Source: a virus
Length of the DNA stretch: 64,000 bases
IMG/VR virus record: IMGVR_UViG_3300043436_002028
Coordinates: 4,547 to 68,546 of that record
Strand: one strand, 5' to 3'
Shown: piece by piece, positions 4,430-58,918 of the stretch
Layout of the letters: each line of letters starts with the position of its first letter
Position numbering within the stretch: the first letter of the stretch is position 1
Notes under the pieces: generated by a model
The model's database searches: none
What the model was told of the DNA's origin: nothing
What the model saw: the letters and a program-made list of their open reading frames with translations, nothing else
Program-made: the position numbers and the translations under genes

Positions 4430-4804
4430 ATGGCTGCACCAAATATTGTAAACGTTTCAACTATTATTGGAAAGACGGCGTACTTAACGCCTGCAAATAC
4501 ATCTGCAAACGTATTATTAGCAAACTCAGCAAGTAGTGGTAAAGTTTTTAAAATAAACTCTATCATGGCTACTAATATTGATGGCACTAATGCTATTGCT
4601 GCTACGGTTTCTATAAACACCTCGGCAGGTGGTAGTGGAACTTCATATCAAATTGCTTCAACAATTTCTGTTCCTGCAAATGCAGCATTGATTCTTTGTG
4701 ATAAATCCACAGCGTTTTATCTTGAAGAAGATAAATCAATTGTTGTAACTTCAGGCACGTCTAGCAAGATAGCATTTGTTGTAACTTACGAGGAGATTTC
4801 GTAA
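4430..4804 (+). CDS. small fibre-associated beta-sandwich protein
   Basis: Coupled to the fibre gene ending ...KAIAMAMIFGG; MAAPNIVNV-type protein recalled downstream of such fibres in aquatic phages. Confidence 0.55.
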   Translation: MAAPNIVNVSTIIGKTAYLTPANTSANVLLANSASSGKVFKINSIMATNIDGTNAIAATVSINTSAGGSGTSYQIASTISVPANAALILCDKSTAFYLEEDKSIVVTSGTSSKIAFVVTYEEIS

Positions 4805-10244: not shown

Positions 10245-10403
10245 ATGCCACTAACCAAAGGCTACTCTCAAAAGTCTGTATCTAAAAATATTTCAATGCT
10301 TATAAAAGAGGGAAAACCTCAAAAACAAGCTATTGCAATTGCTTTAGACACAGCTAAAGAAGCTAAGAAGAAAGCTTCTAAATCCAAACCAAATAAAGGT
10401 TGA
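10245..10403 (+). CDS. small basic protein (52 aa; not in ORF track)
   Basis: Translated by hand: [52 protein letters not shown]; resembles a widespread small phage protein family found near head genes. Confidence 0.7.
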
Positions 10404-10420
10404 TACAGCAAGGAATAAGT

Positions 10421-13400: not shown

Positions 13401-15049
13401 CATCTCTTCGAAAGCTAAATGATTATAAAATTTCTTTAGCCCTTGAACAAGATGCTTCGTCATCAGGTGCTCAGATTATTGCATTAACAACTCGAAACAA
13501 ACAATTAGCTGAATTAAGCAACGTAATACCTACAACTCAGAAGAAACGTTTATATGATGAGATTGCAGCAGCCACTTATAACGATCCAAGATTTAAGACT
13601 TTAAATGAAAAGTTTGGTCTTAATGAAAAGGATTTAAGAAAGGCGGCTAAAGCTCAAAACATGGTTACTTTCTATGGTGCTGGTGAAAGAACTGGCATTT
13701 TCAACGTAGAAGGTAAACTTGCTAAAGTTTTAGAGAAAGATGCTAATACACTTGTTGTAAAAGCTGCTGACAGAGATACAGTACTTAATGAAATTAGCGC
13801 TAGAATTGCTAGATACGAAAAGGTCGACCCTGAAACTGCAGAAGAACTTAGAGTGCTTAGAGAAAATGTTAAGGATGTCTTTAACAAAGGGATTGATCCA
13901 GGTGATGATATCTTAGATCAACTCTATTTCCTGGAGCCTAAGACTAAAGATCTTGTTGAAAAACTATCAAGGTCTTACGAGAAAATTGTTACACCAAATG
14001 ATTTTAAGGTGATTGCTCAAATTATGAGTGAGTACCTTAGAGAGCAAGTTCCTATTCTAAAAGAGTTTACTAGATTTTTCGGCAGATTGGCAGAAGACTT
14101 TTTAACTAATGCTAAACCTTCTAAGTCAGACTTTGACTGGCAAACTATTGCTAAAGTTACATTAAGAGGTTCAAAGCAAAAAGGCTACACGTTACCTAAC
14201 TACGTAAGCGAATTATTAGGATTAAAGCCAGGGCAACCTGTTAGTGAAAAGATTCTAAGTCGTTTTGGTTTCTGGAAACCTAATGGTACTTTAAATGAAA
14301 TTGTTTATGGTATACAAGATCCAAAAGCAAGAAGAACAGGTGCTAAGTATTTAAAAGTTGACTTACTACAGCTAAAAACTTTAAACGAACTAGAAGTGTT
14401 TTATGCTAATAAATTACCTAAAAGCTGGACAAATGTCCCTTGGGTTAATTTTGATGGTAAAACAATTGAACAAAACTTTACACAAACATTCGAAGAAAGA
14501 CTTAGATACCGAGATGAAAATGGTAACTGGTTTACTAACATTTTGCAAGTTCCTCAAAAGACCGAAGCAACTTGGTGGGAGCAAGTTATCAACAAGTCTG
14601 GTAAAATAAATGATATTGCAGATGCAACAAAGGCAAGAACTGCTTTTGCTGTTAATGGCAACCATTCTAACGATGCTGTAATTGTTAAACGTTTTCATTT
14701 ATGGGGCCGTGAAAACAATATCACAACATCAACTATTCATGATGCTTTCTTTGCAAATGCTGCAGACATGTTAAAAGCTAGAAATGCTTTAAGAGGCATT
14801 TATGCAAAAACATTAGATCGAAATGTCATTAAGTCTACATTAGACGAAATGAAAGCAAGAGGCCTTCCAAAAGAACTTTATGACAAGTACTTAGAGGAAG
14901 CAATTGAGCTAGGTCTAATACCCGTTCCTGGAAAGTCTAGAGTTGGTGGAAAATTATTGAAAGAATCTGATATCCTCAAAAAGGAAGATATTCTGAAACA
15001 AATTCCAAGCAATTTTCAAGATGATTACGGGTGGTATGGTGTGGGTTAA
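10421..15049 (+). CDS. MuF (SPP1 gp7-like) minor head protein fused to a T7-like DNA-directed RNA polymerase; candidate virion RNAP
   Basis: N-terminal MuF motif WQYVAVLDARTTPVC...DG......PPAHFNCRS; C-terminal RNAP motifs DHRARIY..SPQ, QDASSSGAQ (A), RKAAKAQNMVTFYG (B), NHSNDA, IHDAF (C); start chosen at the ATG after AAGGA. Confidence 0.9.
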   Translation: MTVNANTQIYDKAIDRAAMIRLYERRVNGKIELVIDGHTVRVDKLIKDANLSQKGFEKLREAIDQELTKTYKETFNISKRSLLDLVSDQLSYAYQNVENAMGQIWRTQRPQRRIAEEIVLEKPLHENRTLAAGWAGVSVSEKKRLEALIRKGISEGKTADQIALEVRKGNVHNITRMQSKALVVTAITSVTAQTDHAVYKANERALAGWQYVAVLDARTTPVCAHRDGTTYPIGDTSHLPPAHFNCRSTTIPVFKSWDDISKLEGAAEVRRRNLEGLTDKQKAFYDGQTPMRETYNDWLFRQPQDVQLRHLGDYQKVQLFNSGQIRLEKFTNPEGNSIGIKELRAMTDDGYELPNDTKKFASAKQKLDSMQLGASTPDDFFDNQKLKNTLVDYYLLQAGELDGTLSITNYRGLLIGTKRSAKNRVLTSPPREDQLKFNPITGRYEDIRLYQPNPAVLSNNLRLLDESNVLLDRDKEFIRSVNDSLAEKMSVNERAVVVDNLRTLFTRHRKNPEPWANFKAVVQSQIKFDVMNVSDAIETQLRRDTNLMKKLLQDNYIDPVLGPVQLDELHDSFIANIGKKNKWEDKVAPKIARELREVFDLSIPLVIKNRLSDADLQQFYLKFAHRLSLADLPDRDQFAVALGRDLYNLANLNGARNAWYKLGMKLLEAKNVNKFFEIETFGVQKRRMKSRLSGTYFGPYYDTIAYNIRVTDPRVQEYAQLTRKVELGLRVAVTSDKNRLVFREGYKTYFIDRGVLGFEDTRIPITSTSSFSDFPEEFVDKEFIDALNWASQAKYKIDSDYYDFINKLLYFEDDKGKAQFYNGLNNYRKYIASRGDAYERFKAMEWLRKSDKAFSNHPFVDHRARIYDRGLISPQSGETFRPFLNTAEPKNFSPEEFKDLQDQIGAFLGGLSDYLEGRFNSLTITGRQKIADKWRPELVKIGNHMLRAKPNDIRAVLESDLLANIDGEEQGKFLRFAIESAKIDNFLGGDYSTASLRKLNDYKISLALEQDASSSGAQIIALTTRNKQLAELSNVIPTTQKKRLYDEIAAATYNDPRFKTLNEKFGLNEKDLRKAAKAQNMVTFYGAGERTGIFNVEGKLAKVLEKDANTLVVKAADRDTVLNEISARIARYEKVDPETAEELRVLRENVKDVFNKGIDPGDDILDQLYFLEPKTKDLVEKLSRSYEKIVTPNDFKVIAQIMSEYLREQVPILKEFTRFFGRLAEDFLTNAKPSKSDFDWQTIAKVTLRGSKQKGYTLPNYVSELLGLKPGQPVSEKILSRFGFWKPNGTLNEIVYGIQDPKARRTGAKYLKVDLLQLKTLNELEVFYANKLPKSWTNVPWVNFDGKTIEQNFTQTFEERLRYRDENGNWFTNILQVPQKTEATWWEQVINKSGKINDIADATKARTAFAVNGNHSNDAVIVKRFHLWGRENNITTSTIHDAFFANAADMLKARNALRGIYAKTLDRNVIKSTLDEMKARGLPKELYDKYLEEAIELGLIPVPGKSRVGGKLLKESDILKKEDILKQIPSNFQDDYGWYGVG

Positions 15050-15054
15050 GAGAC

Positions 15055-15070
15055 CCCGTTAAATTAACCC
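15055..15070 (+). promoter_or_regulatory. motif A copy 1 (CCCGTTAAATTAACCC), putative phage promoter/operator
   Basis: Exact 16-mer found four times, always intergenic; here upstream of scaffold and capsid. Confidence 0.7.
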
Positions 15071-36933: not shown

Positions 36934-37373
36934 TTAAGCCACGAACTATTGAAGATGTAATAACTTGTGTAGAGATGTATTATGCACTCAACGATCATTC
37001 TTTTATAAAAGTCTCAAAAGATCGATCTATTAAATTTCTTCTTCAATTTTGTAAACAAAACAAATTTGTAAGAATCTTACTTAATAGCAAAGACGAGATT
37101 GAAGCTTGGATCTATGCCGATATTGGACAACCTTATCATTGCGATGATAAAGTTATGCAACAGATGTACTATGCATCTAATCAGACTGGTGTAAGAGCTT
37201 ATCGAAATGTAGTTGATTTGCATAATGCACTTCTTGAAGAAGCTAAGTTACGTAATATTTCTTTAGTAATGTCTCAAGGTAGTCATTTAGATGAGCAAAA
37301 TGTGTTCACTAGGATACTTGAGAAAAATGGGTGGGATCGGAGGGGCCATATAGCCCTTAAACGCCTCACCTAG
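36924..37373 (+). CDS. GNAT-like acetyltransferase-fold protein
   Basis: IKPRTIEDV start, L...A......V..., R.LEK.GW end; overlaps the fibre stop; GTG start inferred. Confidence 0.55.
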   Translation: MRIIKPRTIEDVITCVEMYYALNDHSFIKVSKDRSIKFLLQFCKQNKFVRILLNSKDEIEAWIYADIGQPYHCDDKVMQQMYYASNQTGVRAYRNVVDLHNALLEEAKLRNISLVMSQGSHLDEQNVFTRILEKNGWDRRGHIALKRLT

Positions 37374-37378
37374 CTACT

Positions 37379-37472
37379 AGGTTGGTCCGAGGTGCGATTT
37401 TTCTGGGTGGGTCATACTTGCCCCATCGGTTGACGAAAAATTGCGCCTTGGACCGCCTATTTTTGTTTATTT
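37379..37472 (+). other. long RNA stem-loop / terminator at the end of the tail operon
   Basis: 20-bp stem GGTCCGAGGTGCGATTTTTC / GAAAAATTGCGCCTTGGACC with three G:U pairs, an inner hairpin and a downstream T-rich tract. Confidence 0.6.
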
Positions 37473-37518
37473 CTTACACTTAAAAATTTAAGAAATATTC
37501 AAAGTTTCATTCAACAAA

Positions 37519-37534
37519 CCCGTTAAATTAACCC
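37519..37534 (+). promoter_or_regulatory. motif A copy 2
   Basis: Exact CCCGTTAAATTAACCC upstream of the lysis genes. Confidence 0.7.
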
Positions 37535-37590
37535 CCAATGGTAGCCCCTATAATTTGACTAGTTGTTGATGTAGATAAGGATTATAAAAC

Positions 37591-38139
37591 ATGATTGAAC
37601 TATTATCCGCTGTATTTGGCTTCTTTGCTCCATTTGCTACTGAAGTATTTAAATTCTTTCAGAGAAAGCAAGATAATGAGCATGAGCTAAATATGATGAA
37701 GCTTCAGATGGAAGCTAAAAATCAAGAACACATGTATCGAATGGAAGAAATCTCAGCAACTGCTGATATTAAAGAGGCTGAAAATATTCACAAACCACTT
37801 CATTCTTTTGGTGTTCAACTGCTAGATGCTGCTAAAAACTATAACCTTAATGGCTGGGCATTATATCCAGCATTTTTATTATTTGTTATTTTAGACTTTG
37901 TTGCCAGTTTCGTAAGGCCTGGGATTACTTACGCAGCCTTTGCTTTTTACGCTACTGTAAAATGGGCACAACTTGAGATGGCAATGCAAAACAATGAAAG
38001 CTGGCAATCTGCAGTTTTGCAAATTTGGACAAGTTCGGATATGTCAATTGTTATTCTTGTGTTGTCTTACTGGTTTGGTCACAGAGCTGCAAAAGCTGCT
38101 TTTGGTGGATCTGCTAATACAGCCTATAAAGGTGGTTGA
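37591..38139 (+). CDS. holin-like membrane protein
   Basis: K.F..KQD..HEL.M, ..VRP.ITY, ..YWFG.R motifs with TM helices; overlaps the endolysin gene. Confidence 0.7.
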   Translation: MIELLSAVFGFFAPFATEVFKFFQRKQDNEHELNMMKLQMEAKNQEHMYRMEEISATADIKEAENIHKPLHSFGVQLLDAAKNYNLNGWALYPAFLLFVILDFVASFVRPGITYAAFAFYATVKWAQLEMAMQNNESWQSAVLQIWTSSDMSIVILVLSYWFGHRAAKAAFGGSANTAYKGG

Positions 38140-38642
38140 TGAAATACGAGGCACTCAGCATAGCTGCCTCTCTTGCAAAGCCTTTTGAATCCTTGCGTTT
38201 AAGAGCTTATTGGGATGCGCATCCTGATGGCCTTCCTACTCAAGGTTATGGTCGATTGATGTCTAGATACAGTCTCAAACGGCATTTACAAGAAGGCAAA
38301 ACATTAGCACAAGCTAATCAATGGCTTCAAGCTACTTACCCTCCAATAACTGTGCTTACTGCGGAGCATTGGTTAGAAGAGGATATAGAAAAAGCTTACA
38401 ACGGAACATTAAAGTATGTTACTGTTAAATTATCTGCAAATCAAGCTGCAGCTATAACTGACTTCAGTTTTAATTGTGGTGTAGGTAATTTTCAAATCAG
38501 CACTCTTAGACGTTTGATTAACAGAGCTGCTTTCTTAGATGCCGCTAATGAGTTTCCTAAATGGAACAAGTCTGGTGGCATTGTATTGAAAGGTCTTATC
38601 AGACGACGTCTTGCTGAAAAAGAACTTTGGTTATCTGAATAA
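38139..38642 (+). CDS. endolysin (GH24 lysozyme)
   Basis: FE.LRL.AY.D...PT.GYG, Q..A..DF.FN.G.G....STL, EF.KW...GG..L.GL..RR..E. Confidence 0.9.
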   Translation: MKYEALSIAASLAKPFESLRLRAYWDAHPDGLPTQGYGRLMSRYSLKRHLQEGKTLAQANQWLQATYPPITVLTAEHWLEEDIEKAYNGTLKYVTVKLSANQAAAITDFSFNCGVGNFQISTLRRLINRAAFLDAANEFPKWNKSGGIVLKGLIRRRLAEKELWLSE

Positions 38643-38646
38643 CCTT

Positions 38647-38675
38647 AACCCCACTGAAAAGTGGGGTTTTATTTT
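38647..38675 (+). terminator. intrinsic terminator
   Basis: AACCCCACT-GAAA-AGTGGGGTT followed by TTATTTT. Confidence 0.8.
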
Positions 38676-38702
38676 GCGGAAAAATCAGTATCTTATATGA
38701 TA
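38674..38702 (+). promoter_or_regulatory. motif B copy 1, putative early promoter
   Basis: TTGCGGAAAAATCAGTATCTTATATGATA; core GTATCTTATATGA occurs four times upstream of genes. Confidence 0.75.
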
Positions 38703-38761
38703 ACCTAAAAAGTAACATTTCGAGTTATCTTTAAATCAACCAACTAACCAAAAGGATTCAA

Positions 38762-39022
38762 ATGAAATTTCTACTAATTCTATTGCCTTTAGTTGCTAAT
38801 GCAACTGAAATTAAGCCTGTTGACCACCTAGGTCAAATTCAGTATAATAAGAACTCTTTGCGAATTGTTGATAATAAGATTGTTGAAGTGACACCAACTG
38901 GAAAAGTTGAGTATCATAAACAACAATATATTATTAAAGACAGTAAAGTTTTACCTGTTTCTTCTACTGGCCAAGTACAGTACCACAAACAAGGAGCTGC
39001 AAATGTTCTCAAAAGAAACTGA
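38762..39022 (+). CDS. small exported protein with three internal repeats
   Basis: Signal-like MKFLLILLPLVANA; three PV...G.(I/V).Y.K repeats. Confidence 0.6.
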   Translation: MKFLLILLPLVANATEIKPVDHLGQIQYNKNSLRIVDNKIVEVTPTGKVEYHKQQYIIKDSKVLPVSSTGQVQYHKQGAANVLKRN

Positions 39023-39143
39023 AGAATTATTCTTTAAAGTGTTTGGTGTGGATACAATCTTTAGACAAAGAAAATTTCCACGTAGTTATCAGACATATCA
39101 TGCGTATTGCAGACTAATGAGGATTCAAAGGATTGAATTATGA
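39003..39143 (+). CDS. hypothetical protein
   Basis: RBS AAGGAG; coupled to neighbours. Confidence 0.45.
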   Translation: MFSKETEELFFKVFGVDTIFRQRKFPRSYQTYHAYCRLMRIQRIEL

Positions 39144-39352
39144 AAGAGTTTATTAAAATGATTTTGATGCCATTTCAAAAGAAGAGCGCTGAATCTTTGC
39201 TTCAAGAAAGCATTGAAGAAGTAAAACGACAACTCATATCAACTCAAGCACAAGCTGTTTATGCTAGCAAAATGGTTGAGTACTATGAGCTTCGACTTGC
39301 CACGCTACGACTTCAAATCACAAACGGTATTGAGGGAGTTGCGGAAAAATAA
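39140..39352 (+). CDS. hypothetical coiled-coil protein
   Basis: RBS AAGGA; ATGA overlap. Confidence 0.6.
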   Translation: MKEFIKMILMPFQKKSAESLLQESIEEVKRQLISTQAQAVYASKMVEYYELRLATLRLQITNGIEGVAEK

Positions 39353-39367
39353 GTATCTTATATGATA
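39339..39367 (+). promoter_or_regulatory. motif B copy 2
   Basis: TTGCGGAAAAATAAGTATCTTATATGATA, one mismatch to copy 1. Confidence 0.75.
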
Positions 39368-39400
39368 GACAAAAGTCTATAAACTGAAAGGAGCCTTTAA

Positions 39401-39703
39401 ATGTTGTCTTTGAGATTCTTGCAATTAAGCCTTGCTATGTTTATTGCTTTCATATATGGTTATTTTATAACTGTAAGTTTGATGGCAATCATGATTGGTC
39501 TTGGAACTGATTTTATTATCGCATCCACAGTTGCTTTAGTATTATCTACTTATAGTTCACTTACTGTAACGGATAAGATTGAAGCAATTGCTGAAAAAAT
39601 CGCAACGAAAATTGTAGGTATTAGTTCTTTCTTCAAGGAAAAGAAAGAAGAATTTGATGCCTATAATTTCAATCGTAAAAATTGTGTTTATTTAATTTCG
39701 TGA
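39401..39703 (+). CDS. hypothetical membrane protein
   Basis: Two TM segments; RBS GAAAGGAG. Confidence 0.6.
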   Translation: MLSLRFLQLSLAMFIAFIYGYFITVSLMAIMIGLGTDFIIASTVALVLSTYSSLTVTDKIEAIAEKIATKIVGISSFFKEKKEEFDAYNFNRKNCVYLIS

Positions 39704-39842
39704 GGTCTTATGAAAAGCTTTGTAGAAAAAATTACCGATCCTGACTTTGGTGATAAACTGATTGTTTGGTTCTCATTGTATGGATTCGGTTTTGTAACTG
39801 GAATGCTAGTCTTTGAAAACACTTGCCGATAAGGAACTTAAA

Positions 39843-40082
39843 ATGAACTTCTTTAAAATCAAAGCAGCATCAATACTTTGCAAGTTTAGCAACTCTCCTG
39901 AGGCAAAAGTCTTAAGGTCAGTTATTAAACAGACTAAAGGTAATATTGAAGTTGCAGTTATTAACTTCGGAAAGCTTAAAATTAACGATGAAGACAGGGA
40001 CAGAATCCTTCAAGACCTGTCCAAAACACTTAATATCTTTAAGCATCCACAATTTAATTACGCAGTCGTTTCTAGCAATTGA
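39843..40082 (+). CDS. hypothetical protein
   Basis: RBS AAGGA. Confidence 0.55.
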   Translation: MNFFKIKAASILCKFSNSPEAKVLRSVIKQTKGNIEVAVINFGKLKINDEDRDRILQDLSKTLNIFKHPQFNYAVVSSN

Positions 40083-40093
40083 AAGGTTGAAAA

Positions 40094-40324
40094 ATGTTAT
40101 ACTCAATTTTTAGCACAGGTATTCGAGTTGCAGCTGTAACTCTTGCTATTGCCTCTCTGTTAGCTTTTCTAAGTGCACCAGTGTTTCTTGGAATGGTCAT
40201 CATAACAGCTTCTGTTGTTATGACTGTGTATGCGTATACGTTCATAGCTTTTATTATTGGAGCATTTTATAAATGGCTCAAAGTAAGGAAAGCAAATGAG
40301 CGATCAAATACGTATAACACTTGA
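40094..40324 (+). CDS. hypothetical membrane protein
   Basis: Two hydrophobic helices; RBS GAAAGG. Confidence 0.55.
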   Translation: MLYSIFSTGIRVAAVTLAIASLLAFLSAPVFLGMVIITASVVMTVYAYTFIAFIIGAFYKWLKVRKANERSNTYNT

Positions 40325-40598
40325 CGGATGGTATTGTGTAGCAAAAGATTATCCAGACCTTAGTAGAACAGTTTTAGATAGTAAAATATTTAAGAAGTCT
40401 GCAAGGGTCTTTAATCTTAATACCTTACACATAACAGACATAGATAGAATCCAAGGATCGTTCTTCAATCCGTGCTATGTAAAAGGTGTAGTATGCACCT
40501 CAGGGTCGCTAATCCCGTTCTTCATTTTGAGACAAAAAGCAAAAGAGCTACAAGAACTAATTGATTCGGTTCAGGATAATACGAGCATAACCTTGTAG
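40296..40598 (+). CDS. hypothetical protein
   Basis: RBS AAGGA; followed by a terminator. Confidence 0.55.
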   Translation: MSDQIRITLDGWYCVAKDYPDLSRTVLDSKIFKKSARVFNLNTLHITDIDRIQGSFFNPCYVKGVVCTSGSLIPFFILRQKAKELQELIDSVQDNTSITL

Positions 40599-40605
40599 CA
40601 GAGCG

Positions 40606-40658
40606 CCTCCGGCATCACCTCAAAAGGGTGGTGTCGGAGGTTTCTTTGTTTATTTTTT
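40606..40658 (+). terminator. intrinsic terminator
   Basis: CCTCCGGCATCACC-loop-GGTGGTGTCGGAGG followed by a T-tract. Confidence 0.8.
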
Positions 40659-40671
40659 GTTCGGAGGTTAA

Positions 40672-40809
40672 ATGAACTCTCTTGATATCAAGATTATTCA
40701 TTTTCTATTGCTCGTGATAATCCTTGCATTGTTTTCTAAATTGACTATAGATGCTATAATCCTAGGTGCTGTTGCTATATATCTGTATCAGCGCAGAGGA
40801 ATGGCATGA
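40672..40809 (+). CDS. small membrane protein (45 aa; not in ORF track)
   Basis: RBS GGAGG; hydrophobic translation. Confidence 0.45.
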   Translation: MNSLDIKIIHFLLLVIILALFSKLTIDAIILGAVAIYLYQRRGMA

Positions 40810-40875
40810 TCGAAGCGCTTGTTGGTATTTATTTAATAACTCTTGTTCCAAAAATTGTTGTAAGGATTGCAAAAG

Positions 40876-43161
40876 GTGAGACAAAAACTGATAGAACTAA
40901 TTGACGCAAGAGTACAGTCTGAAATTGCACCTCAGAATCCATTAAAGTTTCTGAGTAAGCTTAAGGCTGAAAGCTATATAGATACCGTAATTTCTATAGT
41001 ATACCTATATACTAGAAAGAAACGCGGATCTGTTACAAACACCATATATCTAACTGAAGTCATTTCAGCCTTAGGCCATGGTGTTAGAAATAAATTTAAA
41101 CTTAAAAGAGACTCTGCAATAGCTGCTAAAACAGGTGCTTTTCTTTTATTTAACTTCGAAGTTTTAGAATTACTTCAAGTTGTTCTAGGTAAAGGTACTA
41201 ACGGTCATCAAAGTTATATCATACAGGTTCTTAATGATGATGCTATTTGCAAGTTATGGGAAAGTCTTCCACCAAATCAAATTGAAAAACTTCCTTCAGA
41301 GAAACCATACGCACCTTGGATTACTGCTAAACACGAATCTGGTGTGTGGTTGGTTAAAACAAGAAATAAAGATGTCTTAGATAAGCTAACAATTGACACA
41401 CACCCGATTGTATTTAGTTCTATTAATAAGTCTCAAGCAATTGGTTGGCGTATTAATAAAGAAATCTATGAAATACAACAGTGGGCTTTAAGAAATAAAA
41501 CAGAAGCTTTTTCAGATATTTGGGAAGCTCAAAATGCTGAAGCTAAAGCTACCAAACTAAGAGAAGCAAAAGCAATTGCGAGTATTGCAAAGAGGTTTGT
41601 AGACAAGACATTCTATCATCTATATTATTACGATTTTAGAGGTAGGAAATATCCAACTACAGCTTACTTGCATGAACAAGGTTCTGACTCTGCTAGAGGT
41701 TTGCTTTTAAGAGAAGACTCTAAGCCAATAGGTAAAGATGGCTTCTTCTGGCTAACAGTATCAATTGCTAATAACTGGGCAGGTGATGCTGGAAGAGAAG
41801 ATAATGCAAAGACTGATAAGATTCCTTTAAAAGACCGACATTTCTGGGTTATTGATAATGAGGACATTCTTATTTCTTATGCAGAAAAACCAAAAGTTAA
41901 TCAAGGTTGGATGAAAGCTGATAAACCTTGGCAATTTCTTGCTGCTTGTCTTGAACTGAAAAGATTCAGAGACTGGCAAATGTCTTTCTTCGATGACTAT
42001 ATTGACATTGGAATTATAGACAGTGCCTTAGAAAACTTAGGTGTAGATCCTTATGATTTCAATTCAAGTCTGGAGTGTTATATTGACGGTAGTAATAATG
42101 GTTCTCAGCACTTGTCTGCTTTGACGCGTGATGAGATAACAGCGCCACATGTTAACTTAATACCTTTAGATTTACCAGGAGATCTTTACAAATATGTTGC
42201 AGAACATGTGTGGTCTCGACTTGAAACTCATATAAAGTCAATGGACCCGACTATCGTAAAAGCTTGTGAAACTTTCATAGATAATCTTATTGAAATTAAA
42301 AAACAAATTCAGTCAGCAGAACCTAAAAGTGATGCTAGAAAGACTTTGGTAGATAACATTCTACAATTCAAGAACGATAACGCAGCTATTGCAGATATTT
42401 GTGCGCCTGTCTATTGGGCTAGAGTTGTAGATTTAAAGCACAGAAGAAAAGTTGTTAAGCGAAATGTAATGACACTGCCTTATGGTGGTACAGCTTATGG
42501 TCTAGGTCAACAACAAATTGATGATGCTCGAAAGCATGGAATTGATTTGTTACTACATATGGAACATAAGTGGGGTGCTTATCTAGGCAGAGAAGTGTTT
42601 GAAGATTGTCGTATATCTTTGAAGAGGCCAATGCAATTGCTTTCAGTATTTGAAGAGGCTGGTAGAAAAGCCGAATTAAATGGAAAGTTTCTGTCATGGA
42701 CTGTTCCCGTAACTAACTTTCCTGTAGTCCAAAGCTACACAGAAGGCATTGTTAAAAAGATATGGGTTCAGTATGGGCCTCCTGTAGGTGAAAGAAATAG
42801 CTCAGGCTATTTTGATAACACATTGCAGTTAGCTGTATGCTTTATTGAAGATGTTAAGCCATCAAAAGGTAAACAATCTCAAGGTGCTAGTCCTAATGCA
42901 ATCCATAGTTTAGATGCAGCACATCTAGCTATTACTGCAGATAGGGCAGATTTTCCAATAACTACAATTCATGACAGTTTCGGTTGTTTGCTAGCAGATA
43001 TGCCTAAATTGTTTAAATTAATTAGACAAACTTTCGTGGAGTTATACAATGCCGACCCCTTAACATCTATTATGAAAGATATTGAAGGTGATATTAGTAA
43101 CGTTCAATTTGGAAATCTAGACATCACATTAATTCTGGATTCTGAATATTGTTTTGCTTAG
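40876..43161 (+). CDS. T7-like single-subunit DNA-directed RNA polymerase (stand-alone)
   Basis: DFRGRKY, DKPWQFLA, IDGSNNGSQHL (A), RKVVKRNVMTLPYG (B), PNAIHSLDAAH, IHDSFG (C), C-terminal SEYCFA; GTG start inferred from RBS spacing. Confidence 0.95.
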   Translation: MRQKLIELIDARVQSEIAPQNPLKFLSKLKAESYIDTVISIVYLYTRKKRGSVTNTIYLTEVISALGHGVRNKFKLKRDSAIAAKTGAFLLFNFEVLELLQVVLGKGTNGHQSYIIQVLNDDAICKLWESLPPNQIEKLPSEKPYAPWITAKHESGVWLVKTRNKDVLDKLTIDTHPIVFSSINKSQAIGWRINKEIYEIQQWALRNKTEAFSDIWEAQNAEAKATKLREAKAIASIAKRFVDKTFYHLYYYDFRGRKYPTTAYLHEQGSDSARGLLLREDSKPIGKDGFFWLTVSIANNWAGDAGREDNAKTDKIPLKDRHFWVIDNEDILISYAEKPKVNQGWMKADKPWQFLAACLELKRFRDWQMSFFDDYIDIGIIDSALENLGVDPYDFNSSLECYIDGSNNGSQHLSALTRDEITAPHVNLIPLDLPGDLYKYVAEHVWSRLETHIKSMDPTIVKACETFIDNLIEIKKQIQSAEPKSDARKTLVDNILQFKNDNAAIADICAPVYWARVVDLKHRRKVVKRNVMTLPYGGTAYGLGQQQIDDARKHGIDLLLHMEHKWGAYLGREVFEDCRISLKRPMQLLSVFEEAGRKAELNGKFLSWTVPVTNFPVVQSYTEGIVKKIWVQYGPPVGERNSSGYFDNTLQLAVCFIEDVKPSKGKQSQGASPNAIHSLDAAHLAITADRADFPITTIHDSFGCLLADMPKLFKLIRQTFVELYNADPLTSIMKDIEGDISNVQFGNLDITLILDSEYCFA

Positions 43162-43170
43162 GAGATTTTA

Positions 43171-43689
43171 ATGTTACAATTCAAAAATTTTATAGAGGTT
43201 TATAACGGTTTTAAAGAAGGTAAAGTTCCTTTTTGTATTCTTCAGGAGAGTGCAAAAAGTCAAGCAAGCTTTCTAGATGGTTTTTCAGATGCTTATGATC
43301 CAAACGGTGAAATGGAGCTTCAAAAGATTATTGAAATTAAAAATAGTTTAAACACATCTGAAGAGGATTCTTTTATTTATAACTTAGGAGGTGATCTATT
43401 TATTTGTGAAACTGAAGAAGATCTTAAATCAATCGAAGGTTGTGATTTTGAATGGGCTAAAGCTCATGATGATAAGTGGCCAAATGTGACAGACAAGCCT
43501 ATGGTATGGGATCATTGTGATTATGTAAACAGAGATCCTGCTTCTGGCTGGTTTGTGTTCTTGCTTTGTTGGAATAATGCAGGTGGCCCAATTTATTATG
43601 TTCCTCAAGCTTTGTGGGAAACTGCAAGAGTTGAAGAACATCTTAAAGTACATATCGAATCTTGGAAAACAAACAGCGAGAATTATTAA
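43171..43689 (+). CDS. hypothetical protein
   Basis: RBS AGGAG; acidic and Trp-rich. Confidence 0.6.
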   Translation: MLQFKNFIEVYNGFKEGKVPFCILQESAKSQASFLDGFSDAYDPNGEMELQKIIEIKNSLNTSEEDSFIYNLGGDLFICETEEDLKSIEGCDFEWAKAHDDKWPNVTDKPMVWDHCDYVNRDPASGWFVFLLCWNNAGGPIYYVPQALWETARVEEHLKVHIESWKTNSENY

Positions 43690-43889
43690 TGCTAATTACC
43701 CGAAAAAGTATTTTTACTGGAATTGAAAGAACTCTTGATATTCCAATTACACAACAGCAGTTTGACGACTGGTCTAAAGGAATGCTAATACAAGAAGCTA
43801 TGCCAAATATTACTGGTGATCAAAGAGAATTTATTTTAACCGGCTGTACTCCAGATGAATGGGATGAAGCCTTTAAAGAGGAAACTTAA
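43689..43889 (+). CDS. conserved small phage protein
   Basis: KS..TG..RT.D......W..G.LIQ.AMP.....REFI.TG.TP.EW pattern. Confidence 0.7.
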   Translation: MLITRKSIFTGIERTLDIPITQQQFDDWSKGMLIQEAMPNITGDQREFILTGCTPDEWDEAFKEET

Positions 43890-43890
43890 A

Positions 43891-44244
43891 ATGAGTCAAG
43901 TAACTTATAACAACCCCGTAACAATGGAAAAAGGAATTAATACCATGAAAATGATTATTCAAATTGATAGAAGCAGCAATTTGTGCTTTGATTTTGATCC
44001 TAACTTGGCTGATGTGTTGCTTGAAAGTCAGCTTGTTAGCCTTGACTTCGATTGGAATGGAGAACTCAAAAAAGTACAAGTTCAAGAATTTAAACCTAAA
44101 ATTATTTTAATTAAAGAGTCTCAGATTGAGCCACAAAAAGTCGATACGAACAAGCAACTAAAAGAAATGGAACAACATAAGCAGAAAGCTCTTGCGGAAG
44201 CTGCAGCTATTGAAAAAGAAATGGAACAGTTGCGTAGCATCTGA
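43891..44244 (+). CDS. hypothetical protein
   Basis: RBS GAGG; C-terminal coiled coil. Confidence 0.55.
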   Translation: MSQVTYNNPVTMEKGINTMKMIIQIDRSSNLCFDFDPNLADVLLESQLVSLDFDWNGELKKVQVQEFKPKIILIKESQIEPQKVDTNKQLKEMEQHKQKALAEAAAIEKEMEQLRSI

Positions 44245-44245
44245 A

Positions 44246-44261
44246 CCCGTTAAATTAACCC
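44246..44261 (+). promoter_or_regulatory. motif A copy 3
   Basis: Exact CCCGTTAAATTAACCC upstream of the SSB/replication operon; overlaps hairpin ACCCTCT...AGAGGGT. Confidence 0.7.
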
Positions 44262-44302
44262 TCTGATGAGTAGAGGGTATTTCAGTAAACTAAGGAAAGA
44301 AA

Positions 44303-44800
44303 ATGCCTATCATTAAAGACTGTGAACTTTGGTTTCTTCAGGTTAACCCGAAGCGTCCTAATAAAACTTTTAATCCAGAAAACCCAACCTGGGAATGTCA
44401 GATTCGCACTCAAGACAAAGCTGTGAAGAAGATGTGGGAAGAAATGCATTTGCCTGTTAAGGCTATTGTTCCTGACGAAGGTGCGCCTTACTTTAGGGTG
44501 AATCTTCGAAAGAAAACAATCAAGAGCGATGGTGAAAAAGCAACTCCAGTTAAAATTATTAATGGAGAGCTTGAAGAAATCGATCCTGATACTGTTGGCA
44601 ATGGCTCTATCGGTAATGTTCGTATCTTCCAATATGAATATAGTAAAGGTGGCATGAAGAGCATGGCAAGTGTGCTCATGGGTATTCAAGTTACCAAACA
44701 CGTCATGTACAAGCGGAAAGCTCGTGATGACGATTTCCAAATGACTGAAACGGAGACCGTGGGTGAAGACAACGCCGAAATGGGCGATGACGCATTCTAA
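44303..44800 (+). CDS. single-stranded DNA-binding protein (T7 gp2.5-like)
   Basis: VGNGS.GNV...Y......L.GIQV pattern; acidic tail ending in Phe. Confidence 0.8.
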   Translation: MPIIKDCELWFLQVNPKRPNKTFNPENPTWECQIRTQDKAVKKMWEEMHLPVKAIVPDEGAPYFRVNLRKKTIKSDGEKATPVKIINGELEEIDPDTVGNGSIGNVRIFQYEYSKGGMKSMASVLMGIQVTKHVMYKRKARDDDFQMTETETVGEDNAEMGDDAF

Positions 44801-44808
44801 GTAAGTAC

Positions 44809-44838
44809 AAGGGCTATCTCTTAAAGGGATAGCCCTTT
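44809..44838 (+). terminator. terminator-like hairpin
   Basis: AAGGGCTATCTC-TTAAA-GGGATAGCCCTT with a short T run. Confidence 0.6.
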
Positions 44839-44859
44839 AAATTCTTGAAAAGGACAAAC

Positions 44860-45468
44860 ATGCTGTACACATATACTTGCTACACACGAGATGATGTAGG
44901 AACACCTGTTAGAAAAGATATAACTACTAGGTTTGAAGAAATTAAAGAAGCCGATGTCGTTGCACCAAATTATGTAGATATTTACAATAATCAGAAAATG
45001 CAACATGTCAGACTTCTTAGCAATCTTGATGACTTTGAAAATTGGCAAATTACTCTTGAGCGAGTAGCTACTTGGAAACCTGAAAAGCCTTCTCAAGACT
45101 TGCCTGACGCTAATTTGAAAACTCGTGTAGCTATTAATAAACCTACTCTATCTGCAATTCCACCCGTTGCTATTTATGCATTAGGTGCTGCTATGCAAGA
45201 TGGTGTAAATAAATACGAGAAATATAATTGGCGTGATGCTGGCGCAACATCGTCTATTTTCTTTGATGCTATGTGCAGACATTTGTTTGCCTGGTATGCT
45301 GGAGAAGATCATGCAACTGATAGTAAGATACACCATCTCGGTCATTTAATGGCTGGTTGTGCTATTATCATGGATGCAGAGCTGCATGGTAAGTTAAACG
45401 ACGATCGTAAGGCATCTGATATAGAAGAGCCTATTAAAGCTTTTATGGAATATATTAAAGGAAAATAA
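44860..45468 (+). CDS. dATP/dGTP diphosphohydrolase-domain protein (DUF5664 type)
   Basis: K..L..IP..A...L..AM..G..KY..YNWR...DA..RHL..W..GED...DS..HHL.H. Confidence 0.8.
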   Translation: MLYTYTCYTRDDVGTPVRKDITTRFEEIKEADVVAPNYVDIYNNQKMQHVRLLSNLDDFENWQITLERVATWKPEKPSQDLPDANLKTRVAINKPTLSAIPPVAIYALGAAMQDGVNKYEKYNWRDAGATSSIFFDAMCRHLFAWYAGEDHATDSKIHHLGHLMAGCAIIMDAELHGKLNDDRKASDIEEPIKAFMEYIKGK

Positions 45469-47361
45469 ATGTCTAGATGGCTATTCGACATTGAAACTGA
45501 CGGATTGCTGCAAAAATGTTCTAGAATGTGGATTCTTGCCGCCTATAATCTTGATACTAAAGAAATGAAGTATTGGTTAGAAGGAGATTTAGGTTGGCAA
45601 GAAGAGTTTAGTAAAGCAAAGTTAATTGTAGGCCATAATATTCTTGGCTTTGACGTATTTGTTCTTAAGAAGCTTTTTAATTTTGACTTTCCAAAAACTT
45701 GTAATTTTCACGATACACTCTTAATGTCTCAAATTCTTAATTATAAAAGATTTAAGAATGACGGACATAGTCTTGAAAGGTGGGGTATTGCATTAGGTGT
45801 TGAAAAACACGACTTCAACGATTGGTCTAAGCTTAGTCAAGAAATGATTGACTATTGTTTACAAGACGTTAAAGTAAATATTGAAGTCTATAAAGTACTC
45901 TTAGGAGAACTTACAAGACTTGCCGAGAAGAGCCCACCTATTAAAGATTATCTTAGAGCTGAACATGCTGCCGCTAAATGGTGTACATCTGCTAGTTTAC
46001 ATGGTTGGCCTTTTGATTTAGAAAAAGCAAGAGAGCTTTATACTAAATTAGAGGCTTCTATGCAAAAAGCGTATGATGCACTGTCAGAAAGATTAGGAAC
46101 GAAAACAGTTGCTGTAGATTTAAAGAAGGGTATTGTAGAAGTTAAAAAGCCTAAGTGGACAAAGCAAGGCTTTTATGATGCACATACTGCCAATTGGTTT
46201 GGTATTGATCCTTGCTCTGGCTATGAGGGTGAAGAAAGACCAATTGCAGGTGAATACTGCAGAGTAGAGTTTGTAAAGCTGTCTTTAGATTCTGTTGCTG
46301 ATGTAAAGTTATTTCTTTACAGAAACGGTTGGTCTCCAACTGAATGGAATTATAAGATAAATCCTGAAACAGGAAAGAAAGAAAAAGGCTCTCCTAAGAT
46401 TACTGAAGATAGTCTTGAATTTCTAGGTGGTGATGGTAAACTTTATACAGACTTTTTAACTGCAAAATCTAGACTTGGTATCCTCAAAACTTGGATTGAA
46501 AATACTGATGCTAACGGTATGTTACATGGTGATATGATGTTAATAGGCACGCCAAGTATGCGTGCAAGGCATAGTATCATCGTTAATGTTCCTGCAGCTG
46601 ATAGTGCTTGGGGTCCAGAAATGAGAGCTTTGTTTACTTGTAAGCCAGGATGGAAACTTATCGGTTGCGATTCATCTGGTAATCAAGCAAGAGGTTTAGC
46701 TCATTATCTAAAAGACGAAGAGTTTATTGAAACACTTCTTCATGGAGATATTCACCAATATAATGCTAATGTTCTTACGGATGTTATCAATAAGATTGGA
46801 CTAAAAGAGCAAAATCTTGAGTTGATTAATTTCACAGTAAAGCGAGCACAAGCTAAGAGAGTTTTGTATGCTTTCTTATTTGGTGCTTCTGGTGCTAAAT
46901 TGTGGAGTTATGTGTTTGGTGTTCTTGATGATTCTCTTGGTAAGCGTCTCAAGTCTGGTTTCTTGAAGGCTGTGCCTGGATTTAAAGCATTGTTAGAAAA
47001 GCTTGAAAATATTTATGGCAAGACTTCGCAAGAAGGAGATGGCTATATTCCATCAATTGCAGGTAACAGGCTTTATGTAGACTCTTTTCACAAACTTCTT
47101 GTATACTTACTGCAATCTACAGAGAAAGTTACCTGTAGTGCAGCCTTAATGCTTACTGCAGAACAGCTAGACAAAGAAAATATCCCATATATTCCTTGTA
47201 TTTATTATCATGACGAAATTGATTTTCAAGTTCCTGAAGAGTTTGCAGAAAGAGCTGCTGAAATAGGTAAAAATGCTTTTGCAGAAGGTCCAAAACTATT
47301 TGGCATTACTATTATGGGTGGTGATGCTAAAATTGGTAAAGACTGGTATGAAGTACACTAA
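45469..47361 (+). CDS. polA: DNA polymerase, family A (T7 gp5-like)
   Basis: Exo motifs FDIETDGL, GHN..GFD, YC.QDV; pol motifs GCDSSGNQAR, R.QAK...YAFLFG, HDE. Confidence 0.95.
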   Translation: MSRWLFDIETDGLLQKCSRMWILAAYNLDTKEMKYWLEGDLGWQEEFSKAKLIVGHNILGFDVFVLKKLFNFDFPKTCNFHDTLLMSQILNYKRFKNDGHSLERWGIALGVEKHDFNDWSKLSQEMIDYCLQDVKVNIEVYKVLLGELTRLAEKSPPIKDYLRAEHAAAKWCTSASLHGWPFDLEKARELYTKLEASMQKAYDALSERLGTKTVAVDLKKGIVEVKKPKWTKQGFYDAHTANWFGIDPCSGYEGEERPIAGEYCRVEFVKLSLDSVADVKLFLYRNGWSPTEWNYKINPETGKKEKGSPKITEDSLEFLGGDGKLYTDFLTAKSRLGILKTWIENTDANGMLHGDMMLIGTPSMRARHSIIVNVPAADSAWGPEMRALFTCKPGWKLIGCDSSGNQARGLAHYLKDEEFIETLLHGDIHQYNANVLTDVINKIGLKEQNLELINFTVKRAQAKRVLYAFLFGASGAKLWSYVFGVLDDSLGKRLKSGFLKAVPGFKALLEKLENIYGKTSQEGDGYIPSIAGNRLYVDSFHKLLVYLLQSTEKVTCSAALMLTAEQLDKENIPYIPCIYYHDEIDFQVPEEFAERAAEIGKNAFAEGPKLFGITIMGGDAKIGKDWYEVH

Positions 47362-54249: not shown

Positions 54250-54603
54250 ATGAGTGTTACATTCCATCCAGATGTGCATGATAGATTCTTTGTAGTACCT
54301 AACAAAGATTTTAATCCCGCAGAACCAGAAGATCCTATTTATAACCCTCGAACATCACTAGAAGAAATTTACTTAAGCGTAAATCTCTCTAATATTAGTG
54401 CAGGTATGATTTTACGTTTGATAGGTTATTATAACGAAGAATTATATGGAAGAATTGGCGGTAAAGATCTTGACAACTTTATTGATGCTGTAGTGGTCTT
54501 GCAAGAAAAATATGATGATAATTATATTACAAGCACTTCTGCACGCTTAGAAAGAGTTGCAAGGCTTAGTAAGCATCTTAATGTACCCCTAGTATGGGCG
54601 TAA
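54250..54603 (+). CDS. hypothetical protein
   Basis: RBS GAAAGGA. Confidence 0.6.
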   Translation: MSVTFHPDVHDRFFVVPNKDFNPAEPEDPIYNPRTSLEEIYLSVNLSNISAGMILRLIGYYNEELYGRIGGKDLDNFIDAVVVLQEKYDDNYITSTSARLERVARLSKHLNVPLVWA

Positions 54604-54923: not shown

Positions 54924-54951
54924 TTGAGAGTAATTTAGTATCTTATATGAA
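54924..54951 (+). promoter_or_regulatory. motif B copy 3
   Basis: TTGAGAGTAATTTAGTATCTTATATGAA abutting the RBS AAGGAG. Confidence 0.7.
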
Positions 54952-54962
54952 AGGAGACAGTA

Positions 54963-58494: not shown

Positions 58495-58793
58495 TCATAA
58501 ATTTTGTACAGTCTGTAAAGTATCAGATTGTCTTACAGGTAAATATTTAAAAATACCTGAAAATACTATGCGACAAAGATGGGTATGTCAAAAGTGTATT
58601 GCCAGAGCTACGTCCAGTATAGTTAAATTTAATCTAAAAATAAACACTTTAAATCGCCCCGAGGTGCAAGCCGCAAGGATCGGGAAGAGTTGCCCCATGA
58701 GTTGCCCGCACAGCTCCACCATGGCCTGTCTGGGTAGCCCCTTGGGGCAGTTTGAAACCAAAGGAGACTAATAGATGAACGATCCCTAGACAA

Positions 58794-58809
58794 CCCGTTA
58801 AATTAACCC
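58794..58809 (+). promoter_or_regulatory. motif A copy 4
   Basis: Exact CCCGTTAAATTAACCC. Confidence 0.7.
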
Positions 58810-58849
58810 TATTTCTGAAAATAGAGTTAGGTTTCCCAACGCTGGCCGT

Positions 58850-58878
58850 TTGCGTTAAAAATGGTATCTTATATGATA
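58850..58878 (+). promoter_or_regulatory. motif B copy 4
   Basis: TTGCGTTAAAAATGGTATCTTATATGATA. Confidence 0.75.
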
Positions 58879-58918
58879 GCGCAGTGCTGTCATTTCACAA
58901 TCTTAAGGAAATTTGAAA

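Follow-up and report, generated by a model that had tools for sequence, protein, structure and literature searches.

A free-standing compact T7-type RNA polymerase and a MuF-fused polymerase in a long-tailed lake-water phage: a candidate two-polymerase relay

When a phage encodes two RNA polymerases (RNAPs) of the T7 family, which of them transcribes which genes? The question is raised here by a free-standing polymerase gene at 40876-43161 (+ strand), hereafter RNAP2, in the IMG/VR virus record IMGVR_UViG_3300043436_002028. The window, that is the whole stretch of DNA analysed, comprises 64 kb (positions 4,547 to 68,546 of the record) of a 68.5-kb viral contig with an estimated completeness of 98%; its G+C content is 34-44%, its long open reading frames (ORFs) lie without exception on the + strand, and only two polymerase frames are present genome-wide, RNAP2 and a second, divergent polymerase domain fused to a MuF minor head protein. 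A first-pass annotation made from the sequence alone had proposed a cascade in which a virion RNAP transcribes the early genes and RNAP2 then transcribes the replication, structural and lysis genes. By sequence and structural model, RNAP2 is a real, intact, free-standing T7-type RNA polymerase, predicted to be active. We also hold it probable, if not strongly so, that the two enzymes form a relay, in which the packaged MuF-polymerase would read one promoter-like motif (motif B) and thereby express RNAP2, which would in turn read another (motif A).

The open frame containing RNAP2 (40867-43161, + strand) matches the Pfam family RNA_pol (PF00940) at E 2.5e-63 with 214.9 bits (cut-off 22), PHROG 414 'RNA polymerase' at E 2.9e-111 and the chains of T7 RNAP at E 1.1e-41. 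An AAGGA at 40862-40866 is placed 9 nucleotides (nt) 5' of a GTG at 40876 but abuts the TTG at 40867, and because of this spacing the GTG start given in the first-pass annotation is to be preferred, the protein then having 761 amino acids (aa). According to an alignment of 38 sequences (RNAP2 and 37 database relatives), R255, R257, D404, K528, Y536, H699 and D700 are invariant and D253 nearly so, and these conserved residues align with the DxRGR element and the catalytic motifs A, B and C of T7 RNAP; the earlier description of a stand-alone enzyme with intact motifs, and with DxRGR near residue 255, therefore stands.

An AlphaFold2 model computed on that alignment (predicted local distance difference test, pLDDT, 93.0; predicted template modelling score, pTM, 0.88) has the right-hand fold of thumb, palm and fingers together with a shortened but present N-terminal promoter-binding domain. 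The best PDB matches of the model in Foldseek are the yeast mitochondrial and T7 RNAPs (E about 1e-30). Using VIA-align, we superposed it on the T7-promoter complex 1cez_A (Z 35.4, root-mean-square deviation 3.6 over 658 residues, 1-761 against T7 77-883) and on the T7 elongation complex 8dh1_L (Z 42.6, root-mean-square deviation 2.6 over 483 residues), so that RNAP2 is structurally nearer to T7 RNAP (Z 35-43) than to the mini-vRNAP of coliphage N4 (Z about 21) or to N4 RNAPII (Z 20.2), with which only the C-terminal part, residues 287-761, could be aligned.

Compared with T7 RNAP, RNAP2 is shorter by about 120 aa. In a MAFFT alignment of RNAP2 with T7 RNAP, the polymerases of roseophage DSS3_VP1 and pelagiphage Kolga and 16 database sequences, the parts of T7 RNAP that are absent from RNAP2 are the first ~75-90 residues, a block of ~55 residues around 148-205 and part of ~350-390; the offset of roughly 165 residues in the position of DxRGR relative to T7 is traced to these absent parts, and inserts in the fingers restore about 45 residues. 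A beta-hairpin at 100-118 (strands 100-106 and 112-118) and a long hairpin at 622-662 (strands 622-632 and 649-662) align with the regions that we take to be the intercalating hairpin and the specificity loop of T7 RNAP. The statement that RNAP2 lacks much of the N-terminal domain is thus right for the first ~75-90 T7 residues and the 148-205 block, but it is overstated, because a compact promoter-binding core and both hairpins are retained. Judging from the model, RNAP2 is a trimmed T7-type polymerase and not one stripped of its promoter-binding domain.

The polymerases of DSS3_VP1 (732 aa) and Kolga share the compact form, and lengths of ~700-760 aa are frequent among the best 150 of 6247 database matches to RNAP2. 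With the promoter-binding core kept and the compact form so frequent, the suggestion that the short enzyme needs a cofactor from a neighbouring ORF finds no support, and RNAP2 is predicted from sequence and model to be self-sufficient. The ORF in question, of 172 aa and of no known family (43171-43689, + strand), does belong to a real small family by tblastn and alignment: relatives of its product are encoded downstream of RNAP2 in 26 of the 82 loci searched by tblastn, mostly directly after it, and GG, D and GG positions are invariant in 15 sequences. It could be assigned to no family of Pfam, PHROG or the ESM Atlas, in the last of which the best score, 0.82, is too low to be meaningful. A complex prediction of RNAP2 with the 172-aa product scored 0.00 against a mark of 0.32 and returned no answer, which speaks neither for nor against binding.

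Two side observations concern the polymerase gene itself. The RNAP2 match spans about 2.9-3.3 kb, not 2.2-2.3 kb, in fifteen loci (our numbers L046, L049, L050, L053, L056, L057, L060-L063, L065, L067, L069, L076 and L077), which suggests insertions, either introns or homing-endonuclease genes, within the gene. The database protein P0147 (1892 aa) is a fusion of another sort, in which a long N-terminal region precedes an RNAP2-like, T7-type polymerase of 28% identity at the C-terminal end (residues 1175-1813).

The second polymerase is encoded at 10400-15049 (+ strand), between the portal and scaffold genes, 3' of a motif A and without an intervening motif B. Its product of 1549 aa carries at residues 152-258 a MuF domain of the SPP1 gp7 minor head protein type (PF04233, E 1.3e-12) and, fused to it, a divergent polymerase domain of T7 type (PF00940, E 1e-11), in which DxRxRxY, DASSSGAQ, K..YGAG and HDAF are kept in all 15 aligned sequences, DSS3_VP1 among them. 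Residues 701-1549 were modelled with a pLDDT of 79 and a pTM of 0.75, and the model aligns with T7 RNAP at Z 29.9 over 538 residues (T7 253-883), nearer than with N4 mini-vRNAP (Z 21.5). A sequence search of this domain against solved structures gave no match below E 0.09, and it was the fold comparison alone that placed it. As the alignment to T7 begins at residue 253, it is, in the modelled part, the putative capsid-borne enzyme rather than RNAP2 that is without a T7-like N-terminal domain. Both polymerases of the window keep their catalytic motifs and look intact. MuF proteins are described, in the available passages of a survey of polyvalent proteins, as head components fused to effector domains (PMC5512222), and the fusion to a MuF/SPP1 gp7-type protein makes the enzyme a candidate for packaging in the virion and injection.

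As the first-pass annotation had it, the two enzymes are only distantly similar: by BLASTP they share at best 27% identity over 83 aa around catalytic motif A (E 0.002) and 24% over 153 aa around catalytic motif C, which is to be set against the far stronger match of RNAP2 to T7 RNAP. A quick maximum-likelihood tree places the MuF-polymerases of the window's clade and of DSS3_VP1 together in one clade (Shimodaira-Hasegawa approximate likelihood-ratio test, SH-aLRT, 100) on a very long stem, apart from RNAP2, which groups with other compact enzymes in a starred clade (97 and 100); the free polymerase of DSS3_VP1 lies in another starred clade (98). The pair did not arise by recent duplication. 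The backbone of the tree is not resolved, leaving open the relation of the compact clade to the T7-like enzymes, and the tree joins the long MuF-polymerase branch to N4 gp16 under a long-branch warning; on both grounds we draw no origin from it.

The pair is not peculiar to the window. RNAP2 and the MuF-polymerase co-occur in all 19 near-complete relatives searched for the MuF-polymerase domain (contigs of at least 60 kb), and in DSS3_VP1. Around the two query clades, protein searches yielded more than 443 and more than 385 MuF-polymerases, most of which are annotated only as SPP1 gp7 family head morphogenesis protein. Two ORFs of EBPR siphovirus 1 (partial record, JF412302.1 gp47-gp49), with an HNH endonuclease gene between them, match the MuF fusion at 62% identity. 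As a separate observation, the MuF-polymerase gene was matched in two or three pieces in nine relatives (G002, G003, G008, G011, G013, G014, G017, G018 and G019), some pieces being enclosed by open frames of greater length (1639-1879 aa; possible inteins) and others separated by a stop (possible introns).

Two promoter-like motif classes had been noted in the first-pass annotation and are judged real because they are conserved across relatives, almost letter for letter, though RNAP2 itself is only 41-80% identical. The sample of relatives consisted of 80 IMG/VR loci, 72 of them with RNAP2 identities in that range and the remaining 8 distant, and the motif patterns were counted in 20 near-complete genomes with the reversed pattern as control, which gave 0-1 matches per strand.

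Motif A (AACCCGTTAAATTAACCC) has four copies in the window where 0.06 are expected; another, at genome position 377, falls outside the window. Every copy lies between genes on the + strand, and the logo of 76 distinct copies reads gAaCCCGTTAAATTAACCCt. The copy at 15053-15070, recognised by pattern and by its placement in relatives, begins 3 nt 3' of the stop codon of the MuF-polymerase gene and heads the scaffold and capsid genes, the one at 37517-37534 (pattern and layout) heads the lysis genes, that at 44244-44261 (pattern and layout) is the first past RNAP2 and heads the genes for SSB, a deoxynucleoside triphosphate (dNTP) pyrophosphatase and DNA polymerase, and that at 58792-58809 (pattern) lies 5' of the gene at 58913 and a tRNA region; motif A also stands ahead of the run of tail, portal and MuF-polymerase genes. 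The exact 16-mer is present in 34 of the 80 loci, and with up to 3 mismatches it is found in 62 of the 72 closer loci and in none of the 8 distant ones. The pattern occurs in 19 of the 20 near-complete genomes, with 3-8 copies each, almost always on the coding strand. Among 11 relatives in which the C-terminal part of the MuF-polymerase was matched in one piece, 10 (G001, G004-G007, G010, G012, G015, G016 and G019) have motif A within about 10-25 nt of the last codon, the nearest copy in G009 being about 350 nt off. Taken together, sequence and placement make motif A a candidate ~18-bp promoter for RNAP2. In three divergent fragments (L072, L074 and L075) motif B is kept and motif A was not found within 3 mismatches; these records of 19-27 kb gave no match to the MuF-polymerase domain and do not reach that gene.

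Motif B consists of an upstream GCGGAAAA-type box and an invariant GTATCTTATATGA, and the logo of 91 distinct copies reads tGCGgaAAaa..gGTATCTTATATGAaa. Its four window copies, recognised by pattern, are all on the + strand. Copy 1 (38675-38702, also supported by the logo) lies directly 3' of a terminator and heads small early ORFs; copy 2 (39340-39367, supported by layout) is the candidate promoter nearest to RNAP2 on its 5' side, at 1.5 kb; copy 3 (54925-54952) is followed by a GGAG ribosome-binding site that starts 1 nt past the motif; and copy 4 (58851-58878) is in tandem with a copy of motif A. The exact 13-mer was found in 49 of the 80 IMG/VR loci, the searched set numbering 85, and the pattern in 20 of 20 near-complete genomes, again with few exceptions on the coding strand. 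No core is common to the two motifs. Past both motifs a hairpin follows whose 5' arm begins within the 3' end of the motif, with a minimum free energy of -5 or below in 42% of copies (7% of shuffles for motif A, 3% for motif B); the stems vary in sequence and the pairing is kept, and we read these hairpins as 5'-terminal stem-loops of the presumed transcripts. The N4 virion polymerase reads promoters in hairpin form; within the ~28-bp bipartite motif B, no conserved inverted repeat was found among the conserved letters, and the hairpins are only downstream. The tandem of motif A and motif B before the gene at 58913 (58792-58878) has a distance of 71 nt from start to start, and the same tandem is seen in the relative G001 at 54263 and 54332.

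The order of the motifs along the genome was compared in 55 rows (54 loci and the window). Motif B lies upstream of RNAP2 in 52 of them, at 0.7-6.9 kb, the other three having less than 1.3 kb of upstream flank; where both motifs are upstream, motif B is the nearer in 29 of 29 rows, and motif A was never found between motif B and RNAP2. Past the RNAP2 start, motif A occurs in 42 of the 55 rows, typically at 2.6-3.6 kb, and in one locus (L071) inside the gene. Between motif B and RNAP2 lie small, fast-evolving ORFs (38762-40598, + strand), six in number, each of which has tblastn matches in only 2 to 8 of the 82 loci, compared with 81 for RNAP2 and 68 for SSB. Such small, poorly conserved ORFs are typical of early genes, and they are here candidate genes of host takeover.

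Two terminator-like elements, both on the + strand and both found by hairpin scan, bound this block. The first, a hairpin with a T-tail at 38647-38678, closes the lysis unit immediately ahead of copy 1 of motif B, and the same order of terminator and motif B is seen at several copies in relatives. The second, at 40605-40658 and 235 nt 5' of RNAP2, has a strong stem of 16 pairs (40605-40641) and a T-rich tail. It had been named earlier (as 40606-40658) as a caveat, since it separates the nearest motif B from RNAP2, and the caveat has become stronger: a GC-rich hairpin with a T-run of 10-25 bases is found 200-290 nt 5' of the RNAP2 start in 12 of 12 aligned upstream regions. With its position so conserved, RNAP2 would be made either by read-through or from an unseen promoter. 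The terminator may be an attenuator that sets the dose of RNAP2, and it is the weakest link of the relay.

The closest named phages allow the same elements to be sought in a second clade. For RNAP2 these are the roseophages DSS3_VP1 and DSS3_PM1 (Naomviridae; 34.6% identity over 92% of the query), followed by the pelagiphages Kolga and Aegir (28%) and then by Autographiviridae; the MuF fusion is 29.6% identical over 94% to the DSS3_VP1 'head morphogenesis' protein gp108, which is annotated only by that term or as 'minor head protein-like protein'. DSS3_VP1 resembles the window in its gene order on one strand, in the pair of polymerases and in having analogues of motifs A and B at matching places, but by these identities, by the absence of any nucleotide match for the window in a megablast search of phage records and by the different starred clades of the RNAPs, the window is a distant relative and no member of the Naomviridae. 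The motif A analogue of DSS3_VP1 reads ATAGG(G/T)..CGTTAAAGA(G/A)G, with a G-run and a hairpin behind it. Its 13 copies fall within 2.2-29.4 kb and 45.9-59.2 kb and are absent from the intervening 16 kb, where the free polymerase (gp080) is encoded; the analogue shares a CGTTAAA core with motif A, and a doubtful fourteenth match at 41310 has 5 mismatches and is without the core. The motif B analogue, GCATCTATAATGA, has three exact copies on the + strand and none on the other; the 13-mer agrees with 9 of 13 core letters of motif B. Two of these copies, at 35.8 and 36.3 kb and with a shared GAGAAAA-type upstream box, open a block of small genes past the tape-measure gene and upstream of the polymerase gene, and the third, at 67.8 kb, comes after a terminator. 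As both classes stand at the same relative places in DSS3_VP1, they are older than the separation of the two clades. In pelagiphage Kolga there is a single polymerase, but no clear repeated motif was found in its AT-rich genome that could tie motif A to the RNAP2 type of enzyme. The terms 'RNA polymerase' and 'RNAP' are absent from the main text of the paper on the Naomviridae (PMC8323127) and also from a 2025 paper on the enzymes for deoxyuridine-containing DNA (dU-DNA) of DSS3_VP1.

In the relay that we propose, the MuF-fused polymerase would be made late, packaged by way of its portal-associated MuF domain, and brought into the cell with the DNA, where it would start transcription at the ~28-bp motif B elements. 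Part of these transcripts would pass the terminator in front of RNAP2 and yield RNAP2, which would recognise the ~18-bp motif A as a T7-style promoter and would then express all else, new MuF-polymerase included; host RNA polymerase may not be needed at all. The assignment of motifs follows the gene order: since the RNAP2 gene lies under motif B, it must be expressed by an enzyme present at entry, which points to the packaged enzyme as the reader of motif B, and since the polymerase to be packaged sits behind motif A together with head genes, RNAP2 would be the reader of motif A. Two unrelated consensus sequences also fit two unrelated specificity determinants. Because motif A aligns with its DSS3_VP1 analogue, the transcription start is tentatively placed near its AACCC end, and transcripts would then begin with the conserved stem-loop.

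Several points weigh against this relay. Of the cascade first proposed, the pair of enzymes, the motifs and the layout fit, while the timing, the pairing of enzyme and motif, the promoter role of either motif and the presence of the MuF fusion in the virion are what we infer from sequence. The predicted start of motif A, an alignment-based guess, falls on A, where T7-type enzymes usually start at G. Between the clades the two polymerases diverge in parallel, so covariation of promoter and enzyme could not separate them. With 3 mismatches allowed, the motif B 16-mer is found 4 times in the window against 1.45 expected, a number that 7 of 100 shuffles reach. Three of the four window copies of motif B admit a reading in which a TTGCGN or TTTGCG box is separated by 16 or 17 nt from TATGAT, and the DSS3_VP1 analogue contains a perfect TATAAT. 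The strong conserved terminator-like hairpin stands between the last motif B and RNAP2, which may use an undetected element. A search of sequencing runs matched three lake-water DNA runs, with no RNA run among the matches.

The sigma-70-like reading of motif B is the core of a T7-like two-step scheme, in which host sigma-70 RNAP would read motif B (early genes and RNAP2), RNAP2 would read motif A, and the MuF-polymerase would be otherwise employed, for example in priming, in transcription-driven genome entry or at a few unrecognised promoters. The intrinsic-terminator-like hairpin and T-run at the end of the early block, being of host type, would suit it as well. The resemblance does not extend to the family, however: among the 91 distinct copies of motif B, TTG is found at -35 in 31 and T at the last -10 position in 40, and only 13 have both; the invariant letters fall within the would-be spacer, and the same core is kept from lake-water phages to the marine Ruegeria phage. 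Copy 3, moreover, leaves no room for a sigma-70 start ahead of its ribosome-binding site, which would lie where the transcript has not yet begun. Measured by its letters, motif B makes a poor sigma-70 promoter in the family as a whole, and the scheme would leave a conserved, catalytically intact polymerase on a minor head protein without a task; we consider it unlikely.

The conserved terminator invites a three-tier arrangement, in our view quite improbable, in which the motif B units end at the hairpin (kept in position, with its long T-run, in 12 of 12 aligned relatives) and RNAP2 is expressed from a promoter of its own in the following ~235 nt, read by the host or by the packaged enzyme. 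The extended -10 element reported in the first-pass annotation, TGCTATAAT, is indeed present at 40752-40760, inside a 44-codon ORF, but it is not conserved: among 45 distinct upstream regions from relatives, just 6 contain any TGnTAnAAT within 450 nt, the 12-sequence alignment has no conserved block between the terminator and the RNAP2 start codon, and a sigma-70 scan of 37000-45000 gave 24 sites where 26.6 are expected, none of them on the + strand in 40642-40875. It is also conceivable, the assignment of enzymes to motifs being indirect and similar 5' hairpins following both motifs, that a single phage enzyme serves both classes or that the pairing is reversed, with the packaged enzyme reading motif A and RNAP2 reading motif B. 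T7-type enzymes recognise one promoter consensus through one specificity loop, and the two consensus sequences here are without a common core; with reversed pairing, RNAP2, encoded behind motif B, could never come first, and the packaged enzyme would turn on capsid and lysis genes at entry, all of which makes this last explanation very improbable.

The proposed relay has a known counterpart in coliphage N4 (Schitoviridae), in which the injected virion RNAP gp50 is followed by RNAPII (gp15/gp16). Common to N4 and the window are two phage-encoded T7-family polymerases, one virion-borne (here a candidate) and one encoded early, two unrelated promoter classes, and a gene for the virion enzyme among late genes; the N4-type order is seen here in the position of RNAP2 behind motif B among small variable ORFs and of the MuF-polymerase between portal and scaffold. 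N4 RNAPII (gp15/gp16 with gp2) is without a promoter-binding domain, depends on a cofactor and reads only middle genes. By contrast, RNAP2 is one chain of 761 aa with a promoter-binding core, where N4 RNAPII has two subunits (269 and 404 aa in the record), and its candidate promoter also heads structural and lysis genes. N4 is moreover a short-tailed phage, unlike the long-tailed phage of the window, and its virion enzyme of ~3500 aa is, in the available passages of the polyvalent-protein survey, always fused to a metallopeptidase; in those passages N4-like polymerases are linked to metallopeptidase domains and not to MuF (PMC5512222).

A second counterpart is the long-tailed Thermus phage P23-45, in which a virion RNAP fused to the tape measure (gp96) transcribes the first genes, including that of the free RNAP gp64 (PMC10770324). 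Like the window, it combines a virion structural protein fused to a polymerase with a second, free phage polymerase; its enzymes are of the two-barrel, cellular type with the tape measure as carrier, whereas those of the window are T7-type right-hand enzymes and the carrier is a MuF minor head protein. T7 RNAP and the Autographiviridae resemble RNAP2 in fold, catalytic motifs, intercalating hairpin, specificity loop and a C-terminal end of F-x-A type, and in having a single short conserved promoter-like motif ahead of operons; RNAP2 differs from T7 RNAP in its shorter length, in the siphovirus-type genome and in apparently not being made by host RNAP. As a separate case, the Endozoicomonas phages EmPhiA and EmPhiS, of an unrelated proposed family, are described in the available text of a preprint as having 'two phage RNA polymerases' late in infection (bioRxiv 10.1101/2025.10.29.685362).

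The principle of a relay is therefore already known from N4 and, with unrelated enzymes in a siphovirus, from P23-45; our literature search, which left supplements and most subscription journals outside, found no description of this MuF-polymerase fusion or two-polymerase relay. Extended to the whole group, the proposal would be that the long-tailed phages of a large clade with global distribution, made up of lake-water relatives and the marine Naomviridae, infect without host RNAP, an injected, portal-tethered MuF-polymerase reading the ~28-bp duplex motif B, compact RNAP2 reading the ~18-bp motif A and the conserved terminator metering RNAP2; this is plausible, though we stop short of calling it probable. 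If true, it would add a third independent way of carrying a transcriptase in the virion, after N4 and the P23-45/crAss-type phages, as well as two new small polymerase-promoter pairs. If the relay itself is real, polymerases carried in the capsid would extend beyond N4-like podoviruses, jumbo phages, crAss-like phages and P23-45 and be common in environmental siphoviruses. The relay would also explain host-independent transcription in these phages, one group of which has dU-DNA, as the title of the report on them states (PMC8323127). DSS3_VP1 on Ruegeria pomeroyi offers a cultured system for testing, with candidate promoters for both enzymes defined, and the compact T7-type enzyme with its defined short promoter could serve as an orthogonal expression tool.

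Some minor observations concern the genome and its host. The genome ends were considered as a clue to the genes that enter first, and rejected: in the five relatives classed as having direct terminal repeats, the distance of the MuF-polymerase gene to the end differs in each, so the repeats are uninformative on the order of gene entry, and the ends resemble arbitrary cuts of circular assemblies. UniRef names one MuF-polymerase homologue of 1096 aa (P0156, 79% identical) as a DNA-directed RNA polymerase from 'Flavobacterium sp.', a weak lead to the host group. Finally, the protein encoded at 44845-45468 has the N-terminal domain of dATP/dGTP diphosphohydrolases (PF18909, E 3.4e-23) and adjoins the gene for a family A DNA polymerase (45469-47361) on its 5' side; DSS3_VP1 and DSS3_PM1, distant relatives, have dU-DNA (PMC8323127), and given this, a non-canonical base in the phage of the window is worth considering.

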